This document shows, piece after piece, positions 10,435 to 64,000 of a stretch of 64,000 nt of DNA (position 1 is the stretch's first letter; every line of letters begins with the position of its first letter). Source of the stretch: Nitrososphaerales archaeon. GTDB lineage: Archaea > Thermoproteota > Nitrososphaeria > Conexivisphaerales > UBA164. The position numbers and the translations under genes are program-made. The notes under the pieces are model-generated. The model made no database searches. It was not told the origin of the DNA and saw only the letters and a list, made by a program, of their open reading frames with translations. Location of the stretch: contig JAGDXJ010000021.1 of NCBI GenBank assembly GCA_023256355.1, positions 1,255 through 65,254 on the forward strand, given 5' to 3'.

Positions 10435-11769
10435 ATGTTTATGCTGTCAATTACAATAAATACGCAAACTCCTCCAATAAAGCTAAATCTCACATATCAG
10501 CAGCTTATAGAAAAATATGGCAGCATTGACATTCCAGTTAATTTAGAGCAACTTGAAGAAAACGATTATCAGGTTTCTGTGGGAGGTGTTTCTAGAATGC
10601 TAGTTCAATTTACGAACTATTTTAAGCTCTTACCAACTTGGGTTTCATTAGGACCCGGTTATCCTGAAACAGCTGTTTATAAAAACATAAATATAAGGTA
10701 CGTGGATCTTGACCCAGAAAATCTGAAGAAATTTACAAAGTTTAAGGAAGGGTTTTACAATCAAATTCACAAAGTTTCAGAATATAATTTTAATGCGCAG
10801 GATTACCTCTCTTATACTATATATAACTGGAAATCTGCAGAAGCGCTGATAAAAGAATTTGAAGATACAGATGTGTATTTTATAAACGATTTTCAGCAAT
10901 TACAGGTTGGAGGAATAATAGGTCCTTCGGCTCCTGCCATTTTCTGGTATCACATACCTTTGATACCTGAAAACATTAACCAGCAACTAAGAACTTTTCT
11001 AAGAAAATCGTTTGACGGGTTTGATGAAGTTATTCTAAGTACCAAAAGAGATTTAGAGGGGTATATAAGGCTTGGAGCTGGCGTGACGGCAAAGCAAGTT
11101 TATCCTTTTATAGATCATAATTCTTTAAAGGAACCTCAAGAGTCTGATATAAGAAAGGTTCTGGATAAATTAAATCTAAAACAGGATGAAAAGAAAATTT
11201 TAGTTGTAGGTAGAATGGATCCTATAAAAAGTCAAGATTTGGCAATAAGCGCTATTAAGAACGTCGAAGCGAAACTGATTTTGGTAGGGGACGGTAGCTT
11301 TACAGGTTCAACTTTAGCCCGCGGTAAATCATCGGGCTGGCGAGAATATCTTAATCGTAGAGCAAAAGAAGAAGGTGTTGAAGATAAAGTTATATTTGCA
11401 GGTTATTTGAATGAGGAAGAACTGTTCGCTATCTATAAAGCTAGCGATGTAGTAGTTTTACCTTCAAAGTTAGAAGGATTTGGGCTTACTGTATGTGAGG
11501 GATGGAGATACAGGAAACCTGCAGTTGTAAGCAGTGGCGCGGGGGTTTCAGAATTAATCTTAGATGGGGTAAACGGTTATAAATTTGAAGCAGGAGATGT
11601 ATTGAGCCTTTCTGATGCTATTAAAAAGGCTCTTTCTGCAAAAAAAGAAATTGGCGAACTTGGATTTGAGACGATGTTACAATGGTGCAGTTTAAAGGCT
11701 AGTAGTGAAAGATTAATGGAAATAATTGAGGATGCTTACAAAATATATCAAAAAACGCCTAAACCATAA
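10435..11769 (+). CDS. GT4-family glycosyltransferase (possibly trehalose glycosyltransferring synthase TreT-like)
   Basis: C-terminal GT-B retaining signature (PSKLEGFGLTVCEG...GVSELILDGVNGY). The TreT assignment is only suggested by the neighbouring GH15 gene. Confidence 0.6.
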   Translation: MFMLSITINTQTPPIKLNLTYQQLIEKYGSIDIPVNLEQLEENDYQVSVGGVSRMLVQFTNYFKLLPTWVSLGPGYPETAVYKNINIRYVDLDPENLKKFTKFKEGFYNQIHKVSEYNFNAQDYLSYTIYNWKSAEALIKEFEDTDVYFINDFQQLQVGGIIGPSAPAIFWYHIPLIPENINQQLRTFLRKSFDGFDEVILSTKRDLEGYIRLGAGVTAKQVYPFIDHNSLKEPQESDIRKVLDKLNLKQDEKKILVVGRMDPIKSQDLAISAIKNVEAKLILVGDGSFTGSTLARGKSSGWREYLNRRAKEEGVEDKVIFAGYLNEEELFAIYKASDVVVLPSKLEGFGLTVCEGWRYRKPAVVSSGAGVSELILDGVNGYKFEAGDVLSLSDAIKKALSAKKEIGELGFETMLQWCSLKASSERLMEIIEDAYKIYQKTPKP

Positions 11770-11790
11770 AATTAAAACTCAACCTAACGT

Positions 11791-12124
11791 GGGTTAGGGG
11801 GGAGAAGTCCCTTTCCGTAAGCTGTAGATAGCCCCTTATAGGTATGTTTTTAAAGCTTTCAACACGTTATCTTTACAGATTAATACCCAATCTGAAAAGA
11901 ATGCAAAGATCCTGCAGATCCTGGTCGGGGGAATACGTAATACCTCGCATAAGGTCAGCACTCAGACCAAGTGAAGTCAGCGATAATAAAGCTCTGCTTG
12001 TGGAACGTAAGCGAGATGCCTGTGGATGATCGTGCCAATATGATGGAATACCTGCTGAGTATCCCTCATGTGAAAGCGTATCGATAAACCGGGAAGCCCT
12101 GACAACAAGGTCATGGTAGCTCAC
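11791..12124 (+). ncRNA. Unclassified structured-RNA candidate, copy 1 of a two-member family (see 61883-62112)
   Basis: G+C-enriched intergenic segment with no credible ORF. It shares two conserved blocks with the second locus (11791-11840 and 12011-12124), including GGATGATC, TGCCAAT, ATGATGGAATA, GGGAAGCCCTG and GTCATG. There is a GNRA-capped hairpin GGGA-GAAG-UCCC. The strand is inferred from the upstream A/T box and the co-orientation of both copies. Confidence 0.5.
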
Positions 12125-12140
12125 AAGGCCATACAAGAAT

Positions 12141-12149
12141 CTATATAAA
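12141..12149 (+). promoter_or_regulatory. TATA-box candidate for the GH15 gene
   Basis: CTATATAAA lies about 27-35 nt upstream of ATG 12176. This would give a leaderless or near-leaderless mRNA. Confidence 0.4.
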
Positions 12150-12163
12150 CCGCGATTACAGTA

Positions 12164-13936
12164 TTGGCTTTTATAATGATCGACCATGCATTTTTGAGCA
12201 ATGGTTATGGTTCTGCGCTTATTTCAAAGGATCTAAACGTTGATTGGTTTGCTGTACCGCGATTCGACTCTTCACCTCTTTTTTGCAATCTACTTGATGA
12301 AAGCAAAAACTGCACGTCAAGCATAAAATTTAACACCGAAGTAGCTTTTGAAAGAAGCTACATAAACGATTCTATTTTGCTAAGAACCAATGTAATAAAA
12401 AACAAAGAAAAAATAGCTTCTATAATCGACTTTATGCCTCTGGCTGAAAGCGCTCTAATGAGGATTATAAGTTCAAACGATTCATTTGAAGTTTACGTTA
12501 AACCATCTTTTAACTATTGTATGATTGTGCCAGCTGTTTACAAAAAAGTTCAAGGAGCTATTTTCAAAGATCCTAACGGAAAACAGGCATTAGAATTTAA
12601 GTATGTTTGGAATTCTAAAGTTGAAGAAAAAACAAGCTATTCATGGAAGTTTTACCCAGGAAAAGGTTATCTGTTATTCCTTTACTCAGCTGATGTGGGT
12701 TATGGGCTTTTTAGCAAGAAAAGTAAAGTTTATTCGATTCCATCAGAGGCAATGCCGGCTGCTGTAAGCTACTGGGAGTCTTTACTTGGAAATACAAACA
12801 TCAATCCCCCAGCTTGGGCAGCCCATGTTTTTTATTCATCAATTTTAGTTATTTTGGGGTTAATGTACAAACCCTCAGGAGCGCTAATATCTTCTCCCAC
12901 GACTTCTCTTCCTGAAATAATAGGAAGTGTCCGCAATTGGGATTACAGATATGCTTGGGTAAGGGATTCGAGCTTGGCCGCCGAAACATTAATCAAGATA
13001 GGATATGTAATAAAGGGAAGGGAGATACTTAACTTTCTGATAAACGTCTTAGATCCATCTATGAAGCCTTTTAATCATACGCTTTTTACTGTAGATGGTG
13101 GGCCACCGCCATCTGAATACACAGCAGATTGGCTTAACGGTTATGGTAATTCAAGACCAGTGAGAATAGGAAACGCGGCCCATCTTCAGATACAGCTAGA
13201 TATCGAAGGCGAATTTATGAACGCTTTATCAACTTATTATAATTTTACTAAAGATAAAATCTATTTAAAAAACGTTTGGTGGGCAGTAAAGTCCATATCA
13301 AAATACATAATAAAAAACTATAATAAACGAGATTCAGGTATATGGGAGGAAAGAGACATTCCAAAGCACTACACGCACAGTAAAGTTAATATGTGGAACG
13401 CTTTGGTTAAAGCGGCAGAGCTTGCAAAAGAACTTAACAAAAGCACTGAGGCTGATGAGTGGAAGCTTAAAGCAGATCAAATAAAAGAGTATATATTACA
13501 AAATGCTTGGAATGAAGACGTTGGCTCATTTGTAAGATTTTTTGGATCTAAAGATATAGATGCCAGCCTTCTGGTCATGCCGATTTACGGTTTAATCGGA
13601 ATTGATGATGACAGGTTTCTACAAACGCTCAAAAAGATCGAAAAAGAGCTGGTTAAAGACCATTTAGTTTTTAGATACAAAAAGGACTTTCTTGGAAGCG
13701 TTGCATATCCTTTTGGATTGGCTAGCTACTGGATCGCTAAAATCAAGCTCATGCAAGGCGATTATAAAGAGGCAGAGAAATATATTAGAAAACTAGTTTC
13801 CTGCGCTAACGATCTAGGTCTCTTGGGTGAGCATATAGATCCAGTAAAATGTGAACCGAGAGGTAATTATCCGCATGTCTTTTCGCATATAGCTGTTTTG
13901 ATGGGAGTTTACGAGCTTGCATCAGAAAAAAGATAA
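12164..13936 (+). CDS. Glycoside hydrolase family 15 (glucoamylase/trehalase-type)
   Basis: N-terminal beta-sandwich start (LSNGYGSALIS) and (alpha/alpha)6 catalytic region (RNWDYRYAWVRDS, GIWEER). The likely true start is ATG 12176 rather than TTG 12164. Confidence 0.85.
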   Translation: MAFIMIDHAFLSNGYGSALISKDLNVDWFAVPRFDSSPLFCNLLDESKNCTSSIKFNTEVAFERSYINDSILLRTNVIKNKEKIASIIDFMPLAESALMRIISSNDSFEVYVKPSFNYCMIVPAVYKKVQGAIFKDPNGKQALEFKYVWNSKVEEKTSYSWKFYPGKGYLLFLYSADVGYGLFSKKSKVYSIPSEAMPAAVSYWESLLGNTNINPPAWAAHVFYSSILVILGLMYKPSGALISSPTTSLPEIIGSVRNWDYRYAWVRDSSLAAETLIKIGYVIKGREILNFLINVLDPSMKPFNHTLFTVDGGPPPSEYTADWLNGYGNSRPVRIGNAAHLQIQLDIEGEFMNALSTYYNFTKDKIYLKNVWWAVKSISKYIIKNYNKRDSGIWEERDIPKHYTHSKVNMWNALVKAAELAKELNKSTEADEWKLKADQIKEYILQNAWNEDVGSFVRFFGSKDIDASLLVMPIYGLIGIDDDRFLQTLKKIEKELVKDHLVFRYKKDFLGSVAYPFGLASYWIAKIKLMQGDYKEAEKYIRKLVSCANDLGLLGEHIDPVKCEPRGNYPHVFSHIAVLMGVYELASEKR

Positions 13937-52540: not shown

Positions 52541-52612
52541 TGGACCGGGGGGGACTTGAACCCCCGACCTCCCGCGTGCAAGGCGGGCGTTCTACCCCTG
52601 AACTACCGGCCC
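52541..52612 (-). tRNA. tRNA-Ala (anticodon UGC), no encoded CCA, no intron
   Basis: The reverse complement reads GGGCCGGTAGTTCAGGGGTAGAACGCCCGCCTTGCACGCGGGAGGTCGGGGGTTCAAGTCCCCCCCGGTCCA. This gives a cloverleaf with the G3:U70 Ala identity pair, anticodon loop CUUGCAC and T-arm GGGGG-UUCAAGU-CCCCC. Confidence 0.95.
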
Positions 52613-52619
52613 ATTTGTC

Positions 52620-52803
52620 TGGCTTATCAGTTTTCTTCATCCCTTTTGGTCAGTCCGCCCATCGTAAGACAAGCCATTAGACTGGGTATTTAATGTAGCA
52701 CTCCAACTTGTGGTTGGAGTTTCCCGGTTCATAGCCGTGCTTTGACGCACGATAATCCCCGGTCGTCTTGCCTGTATTTCGCAGGCAACACCATATCAGG
52801 CAA
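52620..52803 (-). ncRNA. Unclassified G+C-rich structured-RNA candidate immediately upstream of (possibly co-transcribed with) tRNA-Ala
   Basis: Sharp G+C enrichment in an AT-rich genome and no ORF. Perfect hairpins lie at 52768-52774/52782-52788 (7 bp), 52701-52707/52713-52719 (7 bp) and 52736-52740/52747-52751 (5 bp). TTATAAG on the minus strand at about 52822-52830 could be its TATA box. Confidence 0.5.
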
Positions 52804-52920
52804 AAAATCTATCTTAATTTTGCTTATAAGCATTTCTGTAAAGGACTATTTATTACTTCACGTAAGTTACTTACAGCTCTTACCCCCATAAATTTTAAAA
52901 CTAACTGTTTTTTTTGTTTG

Positions 52921-53313
52921 TTATGATTTTATACGGACTATTTTTATTTTGTCCATAACTTTCCAGTATTCTACTTCTTGTCCCTCCTTTATTCTGGGTT
53001 TAAGGTCTTCTTCCATGTATTCAGCTTCCAGCGTCTGAAAAGTTTGAAGATCCATAAGCTGTACAACATTTCCCGTAACGCTAAGTACTTGACCAGAACC
53101 TTTCTCGATGATAGGCACTTCAACCTTTGATTCAGACGGACCTACGTAGCTTTTTTTAGCTCCTGTAAATATGTCAATTCCTACCAGCCTGACTTTAGCG
53201 CTTCCATGTTTCCCAGGTTTGCTTTTTTCAACTTCCACAACTTTGCAGGGGGAGTTATCGATCATTATGTATGAACCCTCTTTGATATCTCCTAATTCCA
53301 TAGGTTTTGTCAT
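52921..53313 (-). CDS. eif5a: Translation initiation factor 5A
   Basis: SKPGKHGSAKV hypusination loop, 130 aa. Confidence 0.95.
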   Translation of the reverse strand: MTKPMELGDIKEGSYIMIDNSPCKVVEVEKSKPGKHGSAKVRLVGIDIFTGAKKSYVGPSESKVEVPIIEKGSGQVLSVTGNVVQLMDLQTFQTLEAEYMEEDLKPRIKEGQEVEYWKVMDKIKIVRIKS

Positions 53314-61575: not shown

Positions 61576-61882
61576 TTATATGTCGCCTCTATATGCAATT
61601 TTTATTATAATAAAAACTCGCTTAAAAACTATTCTATATCGTGACATGATAATGATTAAATGAGCCAAACTACTACCGATGCAGGTATCCTGGTTATACC
61701 TTTATTAAACCTGAACCGATTGTAGAAAGTGAAGATGAGCTCTAGCATTGCGTTCAAATCATTAATATGAAGCTTTTTAGCTTTAATGTTGTTTGCGAAT
61801 ACTTTTGTCCTGCTTTTTAAAGGACTGAACCTCTGGATCTGGCTTACATCTTTGATGAACAGTTACTGCCGGCAACTTTTTT

Positions 61883-62112
61883 GGGTTAATGGGACGAAAG
61901 CCCCTTTCCGTTAGTTAAAGATAGCCCCTTACAAAGCCGATAAATTTACAGGGTTGACTAGAATATTTACTCAAACACGGCTTTGTCTGTGAAACGCTGG
62001 CGAGACACCGGATGATCATGCCAATGATATGATGGAATATTTGGTGATTATTATGTTAAAGCAAACCAGCGATTAATTGGGAAGCCCTGGCCGCAATGTC
62101 ATGATACTTCAC
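61883..62112 (+). ncRNA. Unclassified structured-RNA candidate, copy 2 of the two-member family (see 11791-12124)
   Basis: Block A (61883-61933) and block B (62000-62112) align with copy 1. The hairpin GGGAC-GAAA-G(C)CCC replaces GGGA-GAAG-UCCC of copy 1, so the stem and GNRA-type loop are preserved with changed sequence. The central variable part is about 100 nt shorter. Confidence 0.5.
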
Positions 62113-62189
62113 TAACGTTTGATTAATTTTTTCTAATAAATGCCGTTGTCAGCAGTTTCAATATAGATAAGTTTATACAGATTTTCGTA

Positions 62190-62500
62190 TCTGGATAACT
62201 CACCCGTGCATGGGCAGTATGGTGATGACAAAGACCCCAAGACCTCGGCTGAGCGAGGGGGACATGCACGCTAAGGAAGGGAGGCTGAAGATGAAGGGAG
62301 TTCCCCATGAAGGCTTCTCTGGTAACGGGAAGGCTTGTGAGCGGGTACTTCCTGACGGGGGCGGAGCGGAAGGACCCCGATGAACCCGCGAGGGTTTGCA
62401 TGATGTGAAGCCCAAGCCCTGCGGGGTATGCAAATATATGCCAGCGTATGCCTGCGCAAGGTAAAACCCTCTGGCCCTCTCTGCCTTAAATGGCGAAGCT
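62190..62500. ncRNA. G+C-rich, helix-rich island of unknown function (structured RNA candidate; strand unresolved)
   Basis: The strongest local G+C excess in the window. The only ORFs are Pro/Arg/Gly-rich reading-frame artefacts. Complementary segments lie at 62205-62212/62263-62270 (8 bp), 62243-62247/62254-62258, 62341-62346/62384-62389, 62390-62394/62467-62471 and 62395-62401/62428-62434 (7 bp). CUGA...GAUGA flanks a GGGG/CCCC stem (k-turn-like) at 62351-62383. Confidence 0.45.
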
Positions 62501-62592
62501 TCCAGTACTATATAAGGAGCTTTGCCCATTAATAACATAAAAATAAACAGCGGATGTGAAAAACCTTTATTCTTAAAAGCCAAATATATGAC

Positions 62593-63141
62593 GTGAGCTC
62601 GTTAACTCAAGAGGACGATAAGAAGAGATTTAAGGATCTAGGTATGGAAAAGTTAATTGAGCTTTTTATGAACAACGTAAAGACCGTATGGAGAGTAGAC
62701 GGACTTTATTTTCAGGGTATAGAAAAACGGTTCGGACAGGAAGCCGCCAGGGAAATAGATAGAGAAAGCTGGGAGTCCATAGCGAGGATGGAAGCAAAGG
62801 ATCTGAATAAGATTTTCAGGTATGATGGGAGCTCAGAGGACTTTACAAACATGCTTCTTAATACAAGCTGGGCCCTTTACCAGGAAGAGAAAAAAGTAGT
62901 TGAGAAAGAAGATGAAGTTGAGTTTTACGTTGTTCGCTGCAGGGTTCAGGAAGCAAGGATAAAGAAAGGGCTTGGGGTTTTCCCATGTAAAGAAGTTAGG
63001 TACAGCTACCTGAAAGCCTTCTCCGATGAGCTTGATAAGAACGTTGAAGCTGAAGTAATATCATGTCCCCCTGATGAAAAGAAACCGGATTACTGGTGTG
63101 GCTGGAGGTTCAAATTCAAAAACACTAAAAATTTTGAATGA
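62593..63141 (+). CDS. Hypothetical cytosolic protein (possibly DUF6125-like)
   Basis: ORF with GTG start. It is visibly richer in G+C than the core genes. The family assignment is from memory only. Confidence 0.4.
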   Translation: MSSLTQEDDKKRFKDLGMEKLIELFMNNVKTVWRVDGLYFQGIEKRFGQEAAREIDRESWESIARMEAKDLNKIFRYDGSSEDFTNMLLNTSWALYQEEKKVVEKEDEVEFYVVRCRVQEARIKKGLGVFPCKEVRYSYLKAFSDELDKNVEAEVISCPPDEKKPDYWCGWRFKFKNTKNFE

Positions 63142-63238
63142 AGGCTTCTGACCTTTTAAGAAAAGGCTAACGCTTATTAGAAAAGAACGTTTTATAAAAA
63201 TTACGAGCCGCTGGATTGGAGCTTCAACAGCATCAAAG

Positions 63239-64000
63239 GTGTTTGACCTGAGCTACGATCAGGTATTTCAAGCTGTAAGCCTAGGTATAATTCGCGGTTA
63301 CGAAAACGGAAGGGGACTTTTTGTAAAACCTGAAGATGTATCAGAAAAGATTAGCATGATAAGATCTCTTCCAAAAAAGTTCTGGATATACAAAACTCAT
63401 GCTATGAAAGAGTACTGTCTGAGCCGAAACCAGATAGAGACAGCAATGGCGTTCAGCTTAGTGAGGTTCAAAAGGGTAAAGAACCCCCATTACAGCACGG
63501 GATCCGGAGCTACTCTTGTTGCGCTGCCTGACGTTGAATCTAACTTAAAAACTATTAGATCTTTTCCCAAATACTCAGCCAAAGAGCTCGCTAAAAAGCA
63601 TGAATACAATGTCAGGAGAAAACTCAGGAATTCGCTTTCATTCTATTGTCCAAGATGCATGAAAAAGATAAGAGCTCCACGAGGATCCCGTGTATTTGAA
63701 GAAGCCCTTTATGGATACAAAGAACTCGAAGATGCTAGAACTATACTCGTTCTTTTGCATTACAGACATATGCACACCGATTATAGAAAAGAGGCTCATA
63801 ATGTGGATAGGTGGCTCAAACCTGAAGAAATAAATATCCTTACTAATGGGCTTTTTAAAAGCTTTGATGCTTTTATAAAATGGTATGAAGATAACAAGTA
63901 CGATATGCTCAGTTTTGAGCGAGAGACCTGGATCGAAACGATAAGAGCCATTAACAGGACTGCTCAGGAACGAGCTAAAAAGCATTACAGCCAAATAGCT
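63239..64000 (+). CDS. Hypothetical protein, partial (runs off the window end), with two HTH-like repeats and a CxxC zinc-ribbon-like motif
   Basis: Not in the ORF track. The frame is open from 63152 to the window end, with candidate starts GTG 63239 or ATG 63356. Repeats are ...SKVFDLSYDQVFQAVSLGIIRG... and ...MKEYCLSRNQIETAMAFSLVRF..., followed by FYCPRC. The listed minus-strand ORF 63638-63994 is probably its shadow. Confidence 0.5.
   Translation, partial: MFDLSYDQVFQAVSLGIIRGYENGRGLFVKPEDVSEKISMIRSLPKKFWIYKTHAMKEYCLSRNQIETAMAFSLVRFKRVKNPHYSTGSGATLVALPDVESNLKTIRSFPKYSAKELAKKHEYNVRRKLRNSLSFYCPRCMKKIRAPRGSRVFEEALYGYKELEDARTILVLLHYRHMHTDYRKEAHNVDRWLKPEEINILTNGLFKSFDAFIKWYEDNKYDMLSFERETWIETIRAINRTAQERAKKHYSQIA

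Follow-up and report, generated by a model that had tools for sequence, protein, structure and literature searches.

The DNA under study is a 64-kb stretch (64,000 nucleotides (nt), hereafter the window) of contig JAGDXJ010000021.1 from a Nitrososphaerales archaeon, in which the genes near the loci of interest are archaeal (TYW3, PAC2) and in which a set of short intergenic elements was characterised. The first of these, copy c1, occupies positions 11784-12124 of the + strand (341 nt) between the genes for a TreT-like glycosyltransferase (GT4) and a GH15 hydrolase, and the second, copy c2, occupies positions 61877-62112 of the same strand (236 nt). A sequence-only reading of the window had presented these loci as the two members of a family of structured non-coding elements, perhaps an undescribed archaeal RNA family, each composed of two conserved blocks (A and B) around a variable central region. 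The occurrence of two + strand loci that share both blocks was confirmed: degenerate patterns for block A (CCCTTTCCGTNAGNTNNAGATAGCCCCTTA) and for block B (GGGAAGCCCTGNCNNCAANGTCATG) have exactly two matches apiece in the window, at these loci, and 100 dinucleotide-preserving shuffles yielded no match at all. Similarly, no open reading frame (ORF) extends across either locus, all six frames being interrupted or frame-shifted between the copies, while the reported G+C enrichment is real but modest (0.45-0.51 for block B versus ~0.35 for the window). The proposed bounds required correction, as the element starts 6-7 nt upstream of GGGTTA, directly after a TTTAAC-like motif, and the true boundaries are 11784-12124 and 61877-62112 rather than starts at 11791 and 61883. 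Nor is the family limited to two members, since a third copy (c3) is present in the window and a fourth (c4) beyond its end. [quoted passage not shown]

The origin of block B became apparent from its relatives. A metagenome scan with a pattern of two block B motifs, ATGATGGAATA-N(28-58)-GGGAAGCCCTG, yielded 18 loci, seven of which are true relatives (L017, L021, L023, L025, L026, L027 and L030), so that the homologue search which had been suggested did recover more members, both in metagenomes and in the window. In L025 and L027, coding sequence (...VCPVCRTYVKLDLSQREFTCPSCNSTFDRDVASAIVILKEGLSLWNVGETPGDENASAMMEYLQSIPHVSVSMNREALSERAG) is located upstream of block B, and block B constitutes the 3' end of an ORF which ends ...CPVCx(13)CxSCNSTFDRDVASAIVILKEGLSLWNVGETPGDENASAMMEYLQSIPHV...; this upstream stretch is recognisable as the zinc-ribbon and RuvC-III end of TnpB. 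This ORF, of 373 amino acids (aa), matches the Pfam family Cas12f1-like_TNB (36.9 bits, cutoff 26.3) and scores slightly below the cutoff for OrfB_IS605 (29.0 versus 30.5 bits), and both domains are present in most of 78 database homologues according to precomputed data. Several of these homologues are named 'RNA-guided endonuclease InsQ/TnpB family protein', and plasmid homologues are annotated as IS891/IS1136/IS1341 transposase or TnpB. The homologous proteins share a conserved tail, LWN.GET..D..AS..MLEYL..IPHVK.S...EA.S, and block B, translated in frame, gives this tail (c1: LWNVSEMPVDDRANMMEYLLSIPHVKAYR*). That block B consists of TnpB-tail codons explains both its 3-nt indels and the 'ATGATGG' string (=Met-Met).

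Both blocks were found together on either side of an intact gene in L078, which encodes a full-length TnpB of 419 aa (P0121) with block A (GGGGGTTAAGGGGCGAAAGTCCCCTTCCGTGAGC..GGATAGCCCCTTACA) on one side and block B on the other. The flank upstream of this tnpB reads CTTTAAC followed directly by TTTATGGGGGTTAAGGGGCGAAAGTCCCCTTCCGTGAGCTTTGGATAGCCCCTTACAACAGGTTTTTATATAAAG, which is block A, while the 3' end reads ...GAACCGGGAAGCCCTGTCCGTAAGGGCAGGGTAG followed by TTCAC, which is block B. Similarity among all copies comes to an end 5 nt past the stop codon. The same 5-nt distance between stop codon and right end (RE) was observed in L079, L082, L081, L070 and L085, and in all six elements a conserved region extends from ~130-175 nt before the RE terminus to ...TTCAC. 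When the left end (LE) of L078 was employed as a blastn query, matches were obtained in c1, c2, L010/L011, L021, L026, L027, L082-84, L079 and L080. In L079 and L080, the LE is positioned upstream of a Y1_Tnp (TnpA) gene, with tnpB after tnpA, and L070 and L088 are further tnpA+tnpB relatives that share the RE. L078 and L082 carry tnpB only and L079 carries tnpA and tnpB; in all three, which represent full-length TnpB elements with the same ends, block A matches the LE and block B the RE. The full-length relatives come from acidic hot-spring archaeal metagenomes. The family consequently spans autonomous (tnpA+tnpB), tnpB-only and gene-less forms with common ends.

Block A is, by homology, the left end of a tnpB-carrying insertion sequence of the IS200/IS605 family. 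Block B comprises the final ~135 nt of tnpB, equivalent to the scaffold of the omega-RNA (also termed right-end element RNA, reRNA), and reaches the right end (...TAGTTCAC). In intact elements, block B thus has a dual role, as it encodes the C-terminal tail of TnpB and forms the scaffold of the omega guide RNA; it was also observed that the entire scaffold is contained within the tnpB ORF of these elements. The 'variable central region' is what is left after deletion of ~1 kb of tnpB. The proposal of an undescribed archaeal RNA family is accordingly unsupported, given that both blocks are ends of IS200/IS605 elements that encode TnpB and, in some cases, TnpA: the loci are real, homologous, non-coding in the source genome and partly structured as RNA, yet of a kind already known. 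Searches further afield returned little. Among 185,579 species-representative genomes (one per GTDB species, apparently without the source genome), the block A pattern gave eight matches, all by chance in G+C-rich bacterial coding DNA; in viral contigs it gave none, while the two-motif block B pattern gave one chance match in a phage ORF and a 16-mer search gave 35 loci, none of which matched the covariance model of block B (R1, described below). A blastn search of plasmids with c1 was likewise without a match, and an exact search for the GT4 protein beside c1 found no record of it.

Comparison of the window copies with the 1360-nt IS of L078 revealed how the core was lost. In blastn alignments, c1 matches positions 9-56 (LE), 86-132 (the start of tnpB) and 1226-1360 (the last 135 nt) of this IS, and a short internal piece of tnpB (GGIRN..KxST) is additionally visible in translation, while c2 matches positions 9-59 and 1225-1360 only. 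The ~1 kb of tnpB was therefore lost by two routes, represented by c1 (type 1) and c2 (type 2). Each type recurs elsewhere: c1 aligns over its full length, with identical junctions, with L026, which has none of c1's neighbouring genes and represents an unrelated locus, and c2 does so with L017/L023. The similarity within c1/L026 and within c2/L017/L023 ends at TTTAAC on the left and at ...CAC/AAC on the right. Since each deletion architecture is present at two loci or more, the derivatives must have propagated after the deletion had occurred, which is PATE/MITE-like behaviour rather than independent decay in situ. As a separate observation, an intermediate deletion derivative was found at L030:1-1115, on a 1165-nt contig of the same sample series, which retains the 3' part of the LE, a stop-interrupted start of tnpB, and the zinc-ribbon region plus scaffold; this intermediate indicates that decay of the IS uses several deletion routes.

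The four copies differ in their state of preservation. In c1, the LE (block A, 11784-11860, +) matches the LE of L078 (blastn, 83% over 48 nt, E 1.6e-8) and contains a hairpin with a GAAG loop predicted by folding (11797-11816, +) as well as a TATA-like box, TTTTTAAA, defined by the alignment of 11 LE sequences (11847-11854, +). It is followed by frameshifted tnpB remnants (11876-11986, +), which translations against TnpB and blastn resolve into N-terminal codons (..EKNAKI..) and the internal piece (..GGIRN..KxST..). The c1 scaffold (block B, 11987-12124, +), which unites the RE with what was once the 3' end of tnpB, ends ...TAGCTCAC, scores 136 bits with R1 (E 1.9e-35) and is matched by TnpB residues 312-363 in tblastn (E 2.8e-7); its three hairpins are located at 11992-12015 (H1), 12045-12065 (H2) and 12096-12117 (H3), all on the + strand. 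Similarity among the copies ends exactly after ...TCAC, and the adjacent flank (12125-12144, +) would, by analogy with the reRNA of ISDra2 (PMC8612924), serve as the ~16-20 nt guide if an omega-RNA were made from c1. This flank extends into the conserved GH15 TATA box (AATCTATATAAA), and c1 itself is located immediately upstream of that box. Copy c2 comprises an LE at 61877-61950 (+) with a TATA-like box at 61940-61948, and a scaffold plus RE at 61976-62112 (+), in which H2 is degenerate (R1 96.7 bits); its putative guide would be supplied by the flank at 62113-62132 (+), and a run of six T residues at 62127-62132 (+) could, judging from its sequence, end an archaeal transcript. Copy c3, which the sequence-only reading had missed, is a derivative of 200 nt (52693-52892, - strand) with an ORF (52921-53313, -) on one side and a tRNA gene (52541-52612, -) on the other, ~80 nt upstream of the latter and in the same orientation. 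Its scaffold (52693-52795, -) lacks H2 and matches R1 at 46.2 bits (E 5e-11, whether or not filters were applied), and its diverged LE is found ~100 nt upstream of the scaffold match, preceded by TTTAAAA. Copy c4 is of type 2, like c2, and is located at L023:3905-4143 (-), equivalent to ~71.5-71.8 kb on the window + strand and ~7.5 kb past the window end; it belongs to the same genome, as L023 is 100% identical to window positions 62275-64000 and extends further. Overall, c1 retains an intact scaffold, and c2 and c3 look like decaying copies.

The left ends share a common plan. All 11 LE sequences possess GGGGTTAAGGGGGCGAAAGTCCCCTTCCGTAAG...GGATAGCCCCTTA and, ~65-75 nt in, a TTTA.A box, which is preserved in 11/11 and looks like an archaeal TATA box, i.e. 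the putative promoter of tnpB. An LE hairpin is likewise predicted in 11/11, and in most of them takes the form of a GNRA-type hairpin (AAGGGGGC-GAAA-GUCCCCUU); the GNRA-type hairpin noted earlier thus holds as a prediction but belongs to a transposon end. L079, L082 and L027 feature an extra, stronger LE hairpin (CCCCUUUC-GUAA-GGGAGGGG), similar to that of the RE. TTTAAC or TTAAC is situated directly 5' of the LE in six contexts (L010, L026, L078, L082, L027 and L017), and the terminus of the RE is TTCAC (TTAAC in L026). Together, these motifs correspond to the arrangement, known for the family, that pairs a transposon-adjacent motif (TAM) with a transposon-encoded motif (TEM) (PMC10055086). 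The TAM-like motif is degenerate at c1, c2 and c3; at c1 (11778-11783, +) it reads CTCAAC, and the sister strain L010 has TTTAAC in this place.

The structure of block B was derived with RNAalifold from a MAFFT alignment of 14 distinct sequences, which cover three mini-element types and intact elements to ~40% TnpB identity. The consensus contains three hairpins (24 pairs in three helices), namely H1 (GCUYUSCCUR-UGGAACR-YAGGSGAG), H2 (GGAAUAC, a 7-nt loop, GUAUUCC) and the terminal H3, which is positioned immediately before UAGUUCAC and occurs as CCCUGUCC-GUAA-GGGCAGGG, CCCCACCC-GUAA-GGGUGGGG, CCCCUUCC-UUUA-GGAAGGGG or CCUCAG-...-CUGAGG. Of the alignment cells in these helices, 92.2% are paired, as opposed to 33-47% in partner-slid controls, and ten pairs display changes on both sides (compared to two to four in these controls), while the covariation score was reached by none of 500 shuffles; in H3, four of the eight pairs show such compensatory changes. 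The three hairpins with compensatory changes support block B as a structured RNA, the guide scaffold of TnpB. The covariation check suggested with the earlier reading therefore turned out in favour of a conserved structure, but not of an independent RNA gene family. That reading had also named a decaying duplicated spacer or MITE as the outcome which would overturn it. This comes close to the truth, with one difference: the MITE-like element includes the scaffold of a guide RNA and for that reason does show compensatory changes. The covariance model built from block B (R1) scores intact elements at 110-163 bits, c1 at 136 bits (scaffold intact), c2 at 97 bits (H2 degenerate) and c3 at 46 bits (52693-52795, -; H2 deleted). 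With ~135 nt, the scaffold agrees in length and position with the ISDra2 reRNA.

Assignment to a class follows from these features. The window copies encode neither TnpA nor TnpB, tnpB persisting solely as frameshifted remnants, and are therefore classed as non-autonomous derivatives and not as IS. Their ends are homologous to elements that encode TnpB and/or Y1 TnpA; they are free of terminal inverted repeats, the LE and RE termini forming no mutual inverted repeat, and have subterminal hairpins at either end; and they appear to have inserted 3' of a short conserved motif, with flanks that contain no duplication and with cleavage positions that are predicted. PATEs are non-autonomous derivatives of IS200/IS605 or IS1341-type elements, first described in Haloquadratum walsbyi, that arise through core deletion of IS605-type elements and possess near-terminal palindromes, some of them with C-terminal coding remnants (PMC3119063). 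The window copies share with PATEs a size too small for a transposase, the lack of terminal inverted repeats, the near-terminal hairpins, the homology of their ends to tnpB-carrying IS605-type elements, the core deletion and the presence of several copies per genome, which here have a common internal architecture at different loci. They differ in that the host is a thermoacidophilic Nitrososphaeria/Conexivisphaerales-like archaeon rather than a haloarchaeon, in that the sequences are unrelated, in their size (200-341 nt versus 52 nt for the smallest PATEs), and in that the whole ~135-nt omega-RNA scaffold is retained together with the tnpB promoter box. Archaeal IS-derived MITEs, for example the Sulfolobus SM-type elements, are short, non-coding, multi-copy and intergenic, and depend on a transposase in trans, while classical MITEs are characterised by terminal inverted repeats and target-site duplications; in contrast to the latter, the window elements have neither.

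The scaffold itself can be compared to described omega-RNAs. The reRNA of ISDra2 consists of the tnpB 3' end and the RE, with ~16 nt of the flank serving as guide (Karvelis et al. 2021, PMC8612924), and omega-RNAs are frequently encoded by PATEs, which then need TnpB in trans (Meers et al. 2023, PMC10055086). As in ISDra2 and the ISGst elements of G. stearothermophilus, the structured region of ~135 nt is situated on the tnpB strand, overlaps the 3' end of tnpB and stops at the RE boundary, a TAM-like motif precedes the LE and a similar motif ends the RE; furthermore, the gene-less copies that retain the scaffold are akin to the PATE-like omega-RNA carriers of ISGst. Unlike described omega-RNAs, the present predicted scaffold has no sequence or Rfam-detectable similarity to them, and the tnpB stop codon is located 5 nt before the RE end, so that the whole scaffold is also coding.

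Related genomes were also compared at the c1 locus. The GH15 protein beside c1 is 99% identical to a protein of a 'Nitrososphaeria archaeon' metagenome-assembled genome (MAG) and 52-59% identical to Conexivisphaerales proteins. In L010 and L011 (GH15 99%), the GT4-GH15 spacer measures 414 nt and contains the element, while the corresponding spacers of L012 (GH15 78%; 165 nt) and L015 (GH15 69%; 82 nt) are devoid of it, which indicates that c1 is an insertion in the lineage and not a conserved host gene. These element-free spacers are too diverged to provide a clean empty site, and the 99%-identical strains all carry the element. Between c1 and its ortholog in such a 99%-identical strain (L010:9600-9949), the element differs by 11.9% and the flanks by 1.1%, with the differences concentrated in two patches, one in the LE and one in the 5' half of the scaffold. 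In the scaffold patch, c1 shows an identity of 0.83 to the type 2 copy in the same genome versus 0.71 to the ortholog, and the identity to L026 amounts to 0.78 for L010 and 0.53 for c1. Gene conversion among paralogous copies would be a plausible explanation of these patches.

If the window copies behave as the family does, a Y1 transposase (TnpA) acting in trans would move them as single-stranded DNA ('peel and paste') and insert them 3' of a TTTAAC-like motif, leaving the target unduplicated. By analogy, an omega-RNA would arise either from the LE promoter or by read-through of an upstream gene, and would owe its last ~16-20 nt to the flank. With this RNA, a TnpB whose gene lies elsewhere could cleave the donor site left empty (TAM plus flank), upon which the element would be restored by homologous repair. 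A bolder version of this scheme regards the mini-elements as 'guide-RNA-only' transposons, in which the tnpB promoter is fused to the scaffold and TnpB is provided in trans, and regards the patchy divergence of c1 as having been left by TnpB-triggered homing or gene conversion between paralogous copies. The scaffold patch, being nearer to the type 2 copy of the same genome than to the ortholog, is in its favour, and we hold this version to be unlikely; if true, it would amount to a natural record of RNA-guided transposon maintenance on gene-less archaeal elements.

Several observations weigh against the interpretation of the loci as non-autonomous derivatives with a guide-RNA scaffold. A tblastn search of the 64-kb window for TnpA and TnpB detected no tnpA, no intact tnpB and only three C-terminal remnants, and no intact TnpB could be tied to the source genome, as the 'Nitrososphaeria archaeon' TnpBs P0130 and P0141 belong to other assemblies. 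The TAM-like motif is mutated at both c1 and c2 (GGCAAC in the latter), and the 3' arm of the stronger LE hairpin is missing in c1 and c2, as it is in L078, a loss which may impair recognition by TnpA. The covariation rests on 14 sequences of a region that is protein-coding in intact elements, and H3 could be conserved as a DNA hairpin recognised by TnpA, as RNA, or as both. Moreover, the folding energy of the two single sequences is not better than that of shuffles (z = -0.44 and +0.90), so that support for the structure is comparative only. The absence of tnpA and tnpB and the mutated TAM-like motifs would also suit inert fossils, that is, loci of the same gutted-IS origin which have since lost both mobility and the capacity to supply functional guides, their c1-c2 similarity reflecting recent common descent or gene conversion. 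The damage to H2 in c2 and c3, with R1 scores dropping from 136 to 97 to 46 bits, and the ~10-fold excess of element over flank divergence between c1 and its ortholog point in the same direction, but the c1 scaffold scores on a par with intact elements, the TATA-like box is retained in every LE, the deleted forms must have moved on at least one occasion, given that each type is present at two loci or more, and the patchiness of the c1/L010 differences is unlike simple neutral decay; on balance, we find this account possible, albeit doubtful.

The copies might instead be domesticated guide-RNA genes, i.e. cassettes of promoter and scaffold kept by the host or by TnpB elements, whose flank-derived guides steer TnpB or a nuclease-dead relative for regulation or defence. 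The type 2 deletion, which sets the LE TATA-like box ~30 nt upstream of the scaffold start, the T6 run ~15-20 nt past the RE of c2 and the overlap of the c1 guide region with the GH15 TATA box would all agree with such a role; we nevertheless judge it improbable, as no cognate protein was found in the window, the scaffolds of c2 and c3 are damaged, and nothing separates this account from ordinary selfish PATE biology. Additionally, the DNA adjacent to the RE is preceded by a TEM (TCAC) and not by a TAM, and the local site should therefore not be targeted. The sequence-only reading had favoured an independent RNA family with a GNRA hairpin and a kink-turn (k-turn) bound by L7Ae, unrelated to mobile elements. 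Consistent with this, the Rfam 15 scan of the window yielded the tRNA at 52541-52612 (-) as its only hit above the gathering threshold and nothing at the loci, the hairpins are conserved with compensatory changes, and G+C exceeds the genome mean. The kink-turn did not survive comparison with intact elements, where AUGAUGG is replaced by AUAGUGG, AUGCUGG or AUGUUUG and where CUGA falls in a freely varying hairpin loop (UUGCAAA, CUAAAAA, UUGAAAA). The isolated UGAUG and CUGA strings are reminiscent of C/D-box small RNAs and k-turn RNAs, but these motifs are not conserved across the family, a C/D-C'/D' arrangement is absent, and a relaxed Rfam search (E<=10) of both loci gave noise only, with SNORD24, the best snoRNA-type model, at 21.9 bits and far below its gathering threshold of 41. 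As blocks A and B are the termini of TnpB-encoding IS elements and the loci are insertions missing from related genomes, an independent non-coding RNA is scarcely credible. RNase P was also considered as a candidate, block A resembling CR-I (GGAAAGUCC) and CR-V (AGA..CUUA) of that RNA, and was rejected on three grounds: P4 pairing between the strands is impossible, RNase P models give no match and block A is the LE of a TnpB element. Finally, the in-frame conserved translation of block B (..DD[RH]AN.MMEYL..), with some synonymous-looking differences and the 3-nt indels between c1 and c2, raised the idea of small protein-coding genes, to which we assign next to no probability: the peptide is the C-terminal tail of TnpB, c1, c2 and c3 have no start codon context and have stops and frameshifts upstream, and the strain variant L010 carries a 9-nt indel.

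The interpretation of the loci as gutted transposons has consequences for annotation, as it removes a false lead to a 'new archaeal RNA family' and assigns three intergenic loci of the window to gutted IS200/IS605 elements. It further defines, for this TnpB lineage, the LE, the RE, a TAM-like motif (TTTAAC) and a model of the ~135-nt omega-RNA scaffold. Pairs of TnpB and omega-RNA from thermophiles are candidate compact genome editors, and gene-less carriers of the scaffold bear on the question of guide RNA and nuclease as separable modules. On the methodological side, an isolated conserved 'structured RNA' with 3-nt indels and an in-frame translation should be checked for TnpB 3' ends. According to source annotations, members of the TnpB lineage (P0121-P0198) are found in Conexivisphaerales, other Nitrososphaeria, Thermoplasmata, Micrarchaeota (Micrarchaeaceae), Marsarchaeota and Thermofilum MAGs, a distribution which suggests horizontal spread within acidic hot-spring communities.

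A number of observations concern the surroundings of the copies. The GT4 gene (with a TreT-like N-terminal domain) and the GH15 gene, whose homologues are named trehalase TreH1/TreH2, are adjacent at window positions 10435-13936 and look like a pair for trehalose synthesis and degradation that is conserved in relatives. In L012, the TYW3-GT4 spacer (L012:8076-8515) is 440 nt long versus 75 nt in the window; it is AT-rich, has no match to R1 and may hold a different insertion. The region which follows c2 (62170-62520) is G+C-rich (~48%) and purine-skewed; no credible ORF, repeats or folding signal were detected in it, a 127-aa minus-strand ORF has no Pfam match and looks like junk, and Rfam at E<=10 returned no match for 62120-62620. 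The same region is ~88% identical in L021, a strain that is otherwise 99.45% identical, and two other assemblies break their contigs within ~62275-62320.

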